This document shows positions 29,771 through 29,936 of a stretch of 64,000 nucleotides of DNA, one piece after another (the stretch's first letter is position 1; every line of letters begins with the position of its first letter). Position numbers and translations under genes: made by a program. Under the pieces are notes generated by a model. The model saw only the letters and a program-made list of their open reading frames with translations, ran no database searches and was not told where the DNA came from. Origin of the DNA: a virus (taxonomy: Duplodnaviria; Caudoviricetes); IMG/VR virus record IMGVR_UViG_3300028364_000013; one strand, written 5' to 3'.

Positions 29771-29799
29771 AAAAAAAGCCCGACCTATTGGCCGAGCTT
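29771..29799 (-). terminator. Intrinsic terminator (attenuator) ahead of the Asn/His/Thr/Lys cluster
   Basis: AAGCTCGGC-CAATAG-GTCGGGCTT plus T-run. Confidence 0.85.
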
Positions 29800-29825
29800 C
29801 TGTATATTTTAAATTGTACTTGTGA

Positions 29826-29936
29826 TTAAATTAGTTCATCACTTCCATTTTTGCTTATACATAGCTCGACCATACCATTTTGCTTTTTATTGCAAATCGT
29901 ATTATTAATCGTTGTATGTATATTTAATGAGTACAT
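29826..29936 (-). CDS. Putative leader peptide: MYSLNIHTTINNTICNKKQNGMVELCISKNGSDELI
   Basis: 36 aa; core NIHTTINNTICNKK matches the downstream Asn/His/Thr/Lys (and Ile) tRNAs. Confidence 0.8.
   Translation of the reverse strand: MYSLNIHTTINNTICNKKQNGMVELCISKNGSDELI

Follow-up and report, generated by a model that had tools for sequence, protein, structure and literature searches.

A candidate multivalent leader-peptide attenuator in front of a phage tRNA operon

Introduction

The closest described systems are the leader-peptide attenuators thrL (Thr and Ile), ilvL of ilvGMEDA (Ile/Leu/Val), trpL, hisL, leuL and pheL. In these, a short translated leader, in which the cognate codons are clustered, and three mutually exclusive helices (1:2, 2:3 and 3:4) lead up to a terminator placed before the regulated genes, which in enterobacteria encode biosynthetic enzymes. 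The pheST attenuator of Escherichia coli (pheM leader) applies leader-peptide control to a translation component serving the sensed codons, an aminoacyl-tRNA synthetase. T-box riboswitches also use antitermination governed by tRNA status to control genes that restore decoding capacity. Here we describe a locus that shares these features in a 64,000-nucleotide (nt) stretch of viral DNA (Duplodnaviria; Caudoviricetes; IMG/VR record IMGVR_UViG_3300028364_000013), hereafter the window. It consists of a 36-codon leader (leader A) and an intrinsic terminator in front of a 4.3-kb unit of tRNA genes (unit A), and it probably acts as a multivalent, ribosome-mediated transcription attenuator that gates this tRNA operon.

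The window represents the reverse strand of a 195-kb virus record with an estimated completeness of 78% and a GC content of ~34%. DNA runs containing the stretch carry lake-water metagenome labels, and a search for RNA runs returned none. Positions in the window have the prefix w and those in the genome the prefix g (w = 140042 - g); the window features described below lie on the minus strand of the window.

Leader A and the tRNA unit behind it

Read along the minus strand, a promoter-like element is followed by the leader open reading frame (ORF), the terminator and unit A. Leader A (w29826-29936) runs from an ATG at w29936 to a TAA at w29828-29826 and encodes the peptide MYSLNIHTTINNTICNKKQNGMVELCISKNGSDELI. 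A preliminary description had counted 6 Asn, 1 His, 3 Thr and 5 Ile codons and both Lys codons in this leader, and the minus-strand ORF bears these counts out (the three Lys codons are AAA, AAG and AAA). The sensor segment, codons 5-18 (w29883-29924), reads NIHTTINNTICNKK, that is N I H T T I N N T I C N K K, and all 14 residues belong to the set {N,H,T,K,I,M,C}. A confident tRNA gene is present in unit A for every amino acid of this set except Cys.

The intrinsic terminator (w29771-29800) starts 25 nt past the leader stop and has an 11-bp stem (GAAGCTCGGCC, AATA loop, GGTCGGGCTTT) followed by U7. The first gene behind it, tRNA-Asn(gtt) (w29649-29721), begins 49 nt past the U-tract. The rest of the unit (w26022-29126) encodes tRNAs for Asn, a His-like species, Thr(ggt), two further Thr, Lys(ctt), Lys(ttt) and Ile(gat), three poorly typed tRNA-like genes, and a tRNA(cat). 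The order Asn, Asn, His, Thr, Thr, Thr, Lys, Lys proposed in the preliminary description is therefore the one found, the His gene being recognised through Rfam: default ARAGORN does not call it, and it matches the Rfam tRNA model with 41.5 bits and a CTGTGAA anticodon loop (GTG). The unit is larger than the cluster of eight that had been proposed. The next strong minus-strand terminator after w29771 occurs only at w25512 and marks the end of unit A, which holds at least 13 tRNA genes, a 91-aa ORF and three HNH homing-endonuclease genes amid the tRNAs (w29137-29595, which separates the first two tRNA-Asn genes, w28070-28750 and w26781-27551).

Leader codons match the tRNA genes downstream

The mirroring of the downstream tRNA set by leader A is real and far beyond chance. 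We compared local-segment scores with 200,000 random segments of equal length drawn from the phage's own long ORFs, and none of these reached the in-set run of 14 residues (codons 5-18); therefore AT-rich composition does not explain the run. At the codon level, 49-60% of leader A can be read by the anticodons of unit A and 3-14% by those of the other clusters.

The genome contains six such modules that share one layout, in which a TATTTAGAAA-type motif precedes a short ORF and a strong terminator follows 23-31 nt later, ahead of the tRNA genes. The leader of unit E, MKTVININVQQQQQQQSSKEDSPGGA (QQQQQQQ), precedes four tRNA-Gln genes. That of unit D (...RWSRWSSSSNR...) precedes genes for five Ser (one of low confidence), Cys, Arg(tct), Arg(cct) and a weak Trp. 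The leader of unit B (...PMGYMGAPAADD...) is followed by Pro, Asp, Pro, Asp, a weak Ala, Tyr, Gly, Gly and Met, and that of unit C (...LRQLSLQFLQLLFVF...) by Phe, Val, Leu, Arg(acg), Leu and Leu. The module of unit F (w25482-25647), whose leader has three Cys codons and whose terminator closes unit A, is followed by a 223-aa gene and two tRNA-Cys genes. Even the choice of Arg codon tracks the cluster, with CGT in leader C ahead of Arg(acg) and four AGA codons in leader D ahead of Arg(tct).

With strict tRNA sets, the segment p-values are <5e-6 for leaders A and E, 0.002 for D, 0.004 for C and 0.008 for B. The true assignment of leaders to clusters ranks first of 120 permutations for five leaders at the amino-acid level, and first of 720 for all six leaders at the codon level under wobble rules, with strict as well as extended tRNA sets. 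Among 26 strong minus-strand terminators, a stand-alone short ORF precedes only six, exactly the six that stand before tRNA genes.

In two units and an ortholog the first tRNA gene follows the terminator closely (overall range 9-19 nt from the U-tract): tRNA-Gln of unit E begins after 9 nt and a tRNA-like gene of unit D after ~15 nt, and in one ortholog of leader A (L032) tRNA-Asn begins 16 nt past the terminator hairpin. Units D and E and this ortholog have no room for another promoter, and therefore their tRNAs could be made only by read-through of the terminator.

Alternative RNA helices and a proposed model of the switch

The full RNA of leader A folds with -42.5 kcal/mol (z = -5.8), and its minimum free energy (MFE) structure contains a closing helix, helix 1:2 and the terminator. 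The closing helix P0 joins the AGTACA that follows the stop codon (w29815-29820) to the UGUACU of the start-codon region (w29935-29930). Region 1 (nt 15-30, w29907-29922) overlaps the sensor codons and pairs with region 2 (nt 66-81, GGTCGAGCTATGTATA, w29856-29871) to form an anti-antiterminator of 13 bp in the MFE structure (nt 15-22 with 74-81, and nt 26-30 with 66-70). Region 2, written as GGUCGAGCUAUGUAUA or GGTCGAGC, has a second complement in region 3, UAUACAGAAGCUCGGCC (nt 131-147, w29790-29806), which comprises the 5' arm of the terminator and TATACA. The antiterminator 2:3 and the terminator, helix 3:4, are therefore mutually exclusive.

The preliminary description had proposed an antiterminator in which GTCGAGCT pairs with AGCTCGGC; this pairing is indeed present and is the core of a larger helix of 9+6 bp. 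Its energy of -21.3 kcal/mol is ~6.8 standard deviations below that of 1000 dinucleotide shuffles of the upstream part (-7.7 +/- 2.0 kcal/mol), and the helix appears in the fold of the RNA truncated ahead of the 3' arm of the terminator. The shuffle p-values for the antiterminators of units C, E and F are 0.008, 0.028 and 0.058.

In a stall model, the footprint of a ribosome was placed at every codon and the pairing probability of the 5' arm of the terminator was computed. When the stall lies anywhere in codons 1-18, the arm is predicted to be sequestered with P = 0.8; the value is 0.5 for a stall at codon 19 and 0.1-0.2 from codon 20 to codon 29. This window of predicted sequestration agrees with the sensor, whose run ends at codon 18. 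In five of the six modules the predicted drop directly follows the sensor segment; in unit C it falls within the Leu/Phe run.

We propose that transcription would begin ~50 nt upstream of the leader ATG and that a ribosome would translate the leader while RNA polymerase proceeds. Slow decoding of the Asn, Ile, His, Thr or Lys codons (5-18) would stall the ribosome on or just behind region 1 and leave region 2 (GGUCGAGCUAUGUAUA) free to pair with region 3 once that is made. With the 5' arm of the terminator thus sequestered, the polymerase would read through to the genes for tRNA-Asn, Asn, His, three Thr, two Lys, Ile and the rest. When decoding is fast, the ribosome would cover region 2 or sit between regions 2 and 3 up to the stop codon and so block the antiterminator; the 3:4 hairpin would then form and transcription would stop at the U7 tract. 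The new tRNAs would lift the stall, a negative feedback on decoding capacity. The quantity that limits decoding could be the amount or integrity of the tRNAs, or their charging.

Conservation of the leader in related phages

A 99-aa protein encoded just upstream of leader A has 22 homologs (63-82% identity). The contigs of these homologs and a scan of metagenomes yielded 13 distinct orthologs of leader A, which were aligned with it (n = 14). Scans of IMG/VR by protein and by promoter word recovered no relatives; relatives did come from the metagenome scan and from exact-protein look-ups. The orthologous clusters carry the same tRNA species (Asn, His, Thr, Lys, Ile and Met).

The ATG-TAC start, the reading frame and the in-frame character of indels are kept in all 13 orthologs. 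Despite substitutions and in-frame indels, ortholog sensors such as NIHITKTNTICNNKKHN or NIHITNINTICKTNKHN remain 88-94% within the set of amino acids, compared with 44% for random nonsynonymous neighbours. The C-terminal tail of the peptide varies freely in sequence and length, and the RNA-pairing positions are conserved. A search for protein homologs of the leader ORF found none. We also considered a 94-aa ORF with a TTG start that extends leader A upstream (w29826-30110). It has no Pfam match, a borderline PHROG match (E = 0.0011) and no tblastn relative, and we rejected it as a real gene. In each of the 13 orthologs the frame closes 2-16 codons ahead of the ATG, and the longer ORF is thus accidental to this genome.

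The alternative helices are conserved as well. In the alignment, 95% of cells in the antiterminator 2:3 are paired, compared with 26-46% in slid controls. One of its pairs is compensatory, with A-U in 8 sequences, G-C in 3 and G-U in 2; since the change from A to G turns a Glu of the peptide into Gly, it seems that the RNA pairing and not the residue is kept at this position. Helix 1:2 retains 11-13 of its 13 pairs in the orthologs, and P0 retains 5-6 of its 6 pairs in seven of them. RNAalifold (n = 14) independently returned helix 1:2 and the terminator, together with an inner hairpin in which two pairs are compensatory.

A further use of the module is found before a gene of another kind. Four relatives (L019:3241-3371, L024:2279-2410, L032:2492-2630 and L038:2536-2675) have an Ile-rich leader of the MNSRSLNIIQIIIAIIISISPGLDIV type (8-9 Ile in 24-26 codons) with a terminator from the same sequence family, and 17-20 nt farther on comes a gene identified as ileS by its TIGR00392 score (735-739 bits; cut-off 621). 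Because this leader precedes ileS, the phage group apparently uses the leader module for translation genes. An ileS gene was not found in the 195-kb record, where only MetRS matched, and the MetRS gene of the window is without a leader module. In another relative (L017:9847-10233), an HNH gene (NUMOD4/HNH_3) lies directly behind the leader terminator, whose 3' arm is replaced.

Predicted promoter and flanking elements

A Bacteroidota-type promoter is predicted upstream of leader A at w29992-30024. It consists of TTTG (w30024-30021), a 21-nt spacer and TATATTTG (w29999-29992), followed by CGTA, an arrangement that we take to fit the Bacteroides -33/-7 consensus, and its activity is proposed by this analogy. 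The promoter sits in a 130-nt repeat (w29936-30067), copies of which precede two other tRNA clusters at 88% and 77% identity. The promoter word TAnnTTTGCGTA occurs ten times, every time on the minus strand, and the 13 orthologs have the promoter motif as well, 52-81 nt ahead of the ATG. A default sigma-70 promoter scan was uninformative and found nothing special. The 5' untranslated region (w29937-29985) is A-rich and contains the motif TATTTAGAAA (w29957-29948), which is also present in the orthologs and precedes five of the six leaders; unit E carries TATTTAAAAG instead.

The 49-nt spacer behind the terminator of unit A contains a small hairpin motif (GAAACGT) and AAAATTTGAAATAT. The hairpin, GAGAAACGTTC (w29744-29754), is weak in this copy, with 2-4 bp. 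Small hairpins with an AACG loop (motif GAAACGTC) occur in units A, B and C, 10-25 nt past the terminator (w29744-29754, w44120-44135 and w4505-4520), and in most orthologs (L014-L031), and their stems covary (GTGA/TCAC, ATGGA/TCCAT, GGGA/TCCC and GAGA/TCTC). Between this hairpin and the first tRNA lie TTTCCGAAAGG and ATTTGAAATAT. The hairpin motif may serve in processing, as a protein site or as a weak promoter.

Two of the other units have an additional gene between promoter and leader. In unit E (w376-778) this is tRNA-Leu(aag), which is thus outside the gate of the poly-Gln leader, and in unit D (w59877-60048) it is a 38-aa Lys-rich ORF. An irregular, Ser(tga)-like tRNA gene directly follows the terminator of leader D.

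The tRNA island

ARAGORN called 37 tRNA genes in the window and Rfam contributes several more, all on the minus strand. In addition to the three HNH endonuclease genes amid the tRNAs, the island encodes MetRS (w10284-11831), an RtcB RNA ligase (w19792-21219), a TnpB/IS605 OrfB protein (w7219-8337) and an FtsH-like protease. An N-terminal piece of the RtcB ligase resembles a tRNA nucleotidyltransferase. No close relative was found among cultured phages, in which matches were limited to the HNH genes and to distant RtcB and ATP-grasp proteins.

Several tRNA-like genes (w59625-59713, w26226-26398, w28931-29015 and others) show anticodon loops that are enlarged or irregular, inserts in the D arm or acceptor stems with mismatches, and are overlooked by default ARAGORN. 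A GOLLD RNA (RF02032) at w33995-34421 scores 169 bits (gathering score 150), and near it lie two odd tRNAs, one with a 6-nt anticodon loop (w35741-35813) and one with an insert of ~25 nt in the anticodon arm (w35898-35997). Outside the window, at g73284-73356, a tRNA with the anticodon CUA (amber suppressor type) stands beside a tRNA-Lys(ctt), with no leader module upstream.

Discussion

Leader A has the elements of an attenuator: a short upstream ORF with a start codon, clustered cognate codons, a terminator before the tRNA genes, an antiterminator exclusive with it, and a helix 1:2 over the sensor codons. We consider it likely that a multivalent leader-peptide attenuator gates the tRNA operon of unit A. 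Such a multi-amino-acid attenuator had been suggested in the preliminary description. Support for it now comes from the comparison of sequences, in that six modules each match their own cluster, the three helices are conserved (n = 14), some units lack room for a second promoter, and an Ile leader stands before ileS.

Several points count against this reading. The Cys codon of the sensor has no confident tRNA-Cys within unit A, and clear tRNA-Cys genes follow the next leader. The tRNA-His of unit A is degenerate, with a D-arm insertion and two acceptor mismatches. The equilibrium fold of the nascent leader A also prefers the antiterminator when no ribosome is present (P = 0.81), so that an untranslated RNA would terminate only if helix 1:2 were kinetically trapped. 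In the paralogs B and D the antiterminators are no better than those of shuffled sequences (p = 0.40 and 0.25), and the helices of the orthologs consist mostly of invariant pairs, with little covariation and a single compensatory pair in 2:3. The conserved AT-rich AAAATTTGAAATAT just upstream of tRNA-Asn could be a weak internal promoter. Lastly, the model assumes that transcription and translation are coupled in the host.

The strongest competitor, in our view an unlikely one, keeps the sensing of translation and changes its input or output: the leader would respond to amino-acid starvation through uncharged tRNA, or the stall would act on RNA processing, RNA stability or the timing of infection instead of on read-through. 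Classical attenuators respond to charged tRNA and by themselves cannot separate a shortage of tRNA from a shortage of amino acids, and both the conserved elements behind the terminators and the weak antiterminators in B and D would suit another output. However, extra tRNA is useless under amino-acid starvation, and therefore the gene content argues for a sensor of tRNA supply; in unit A, moreover, a strong and conserved 2:3 helix overlaps the arm of the terminator.

Two other explanations dispense with the sensing of codons altogether. An untranslated structured RNA, either a terminator/antiterminator switch controlled by a protein or RNA or a small RNA, with an incidental ORF, would account for the very stable fold and for weak sub-threshold Rfam matches to MicC and Leu_leader over the terminator. 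We regard it as very improbable, as 13 orthologs keep the ATG, the frame, the in-frame nature of indels and, for codons 5-18, the class of amino acid, and as the codon mirror in six paralogs is inexplicable without translation. There is even less to recommend an ordinary small gene with its own terminator, followed by tRNAs with a separate downstream promoter, in which the likeness of the peptide to the tRNA set is a coincidence or a by-product of AT-rich DNA. Asn, Ile and Lys are common in a genome of 34% GC, a promoter-like AT-rich motif does lie ahead of tRNA-Asn, and the sigma-70 scan singled out nothing. Yet random proteome segments of the same genome never match the run of leader A, each of the six modules matches its own cluster (1/720), the peptide has no protein homolog, its C-terminal tail is unconserved while the RNA-pairing positions are conserved, and units D and E and the L032 ortholog leave no space for a promoter.

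Beyond unit A, we lean slightly towards the view that in this phage lineage every tRNA operon has its own decoding sensor, matched to it in codons, and is switched on only when ribosomes stall at codons cognate to its tRNAs. The modules would then form an autonomous supply-on-demand circuit for tRNAs and also a counter-measure against depletion or cleavage of particular tRNAs by the host, for example with anticodon nucleases. The island that contains the leaders also encodes the RtcB ligase, MetRS and many tRNAs with unusual anticodon loops. The question bears on how phage tRNA genes are regulated and on why large phages carry them. If the attenuator reading is true, the phage gauges decoding speed codon by codon and replenishes only the tRNAs that are running short, and the leaders provide a testable read-out of the codons that a phage expects to be limiting and suggest that the phage is equipped to respond when host tRNAs are depleted. 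With their different amino-acid sets, the six parallel modules constitute a natural experiment on attenuator design, and such modules could act as compact codon-specific sensors of translation.

Comparison with known attenuators

Leader A shares with thrL and ilvL the multivalent sensing of several amino acids by one leader. Unlike these and the other enterobacterial leaders, it is found in a phage, has a Bacteroidota-type promoter and no Shine-Dalgarno sequence, and would sense five to seven amino acids. Its stop codon lies 28 nt past region 2, whereas in enterobacterial attenuators it is at the edge of region 2. Leader A is below threshold for any Rfam leader family: the match to RF00512 (Leu_leader) reaches 25.5 bits (E = 0.044; gathering score 50) and covers only the terminator part. 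T-box riboswitches bind uncharged tRNA directly and independently of translation, whereas the mechanism proposed for leader A needs translation; the Rfam scans of the window found no T-box motif. In full-text literature, of which our coverage was incomplete, we found no account of tRNA genes under the control of a leader peptide.

The pheST attenuator is comparable in that both systems would control a component of translation that serves the sensed codons. Its product is an aminoacyl-tRNA synthetase, whereas behind leader A it is the tRNA itself, in several species; the Ile leader before ileS in the phage relatives is the direct analogue of pheST. What sets leader A apart from the classical attenuators is that the downstream genes are tRNAs and HNH endonucleases and not biosynthetic enzymes or a synthetase. 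If the proposal is true, a textbook mechanism so far tied to amino-acid and synthetase genes extends to tRNA genes; it is a known mechanism, leader-peptide attenuation, with a new target, tRNA genes in a phage.
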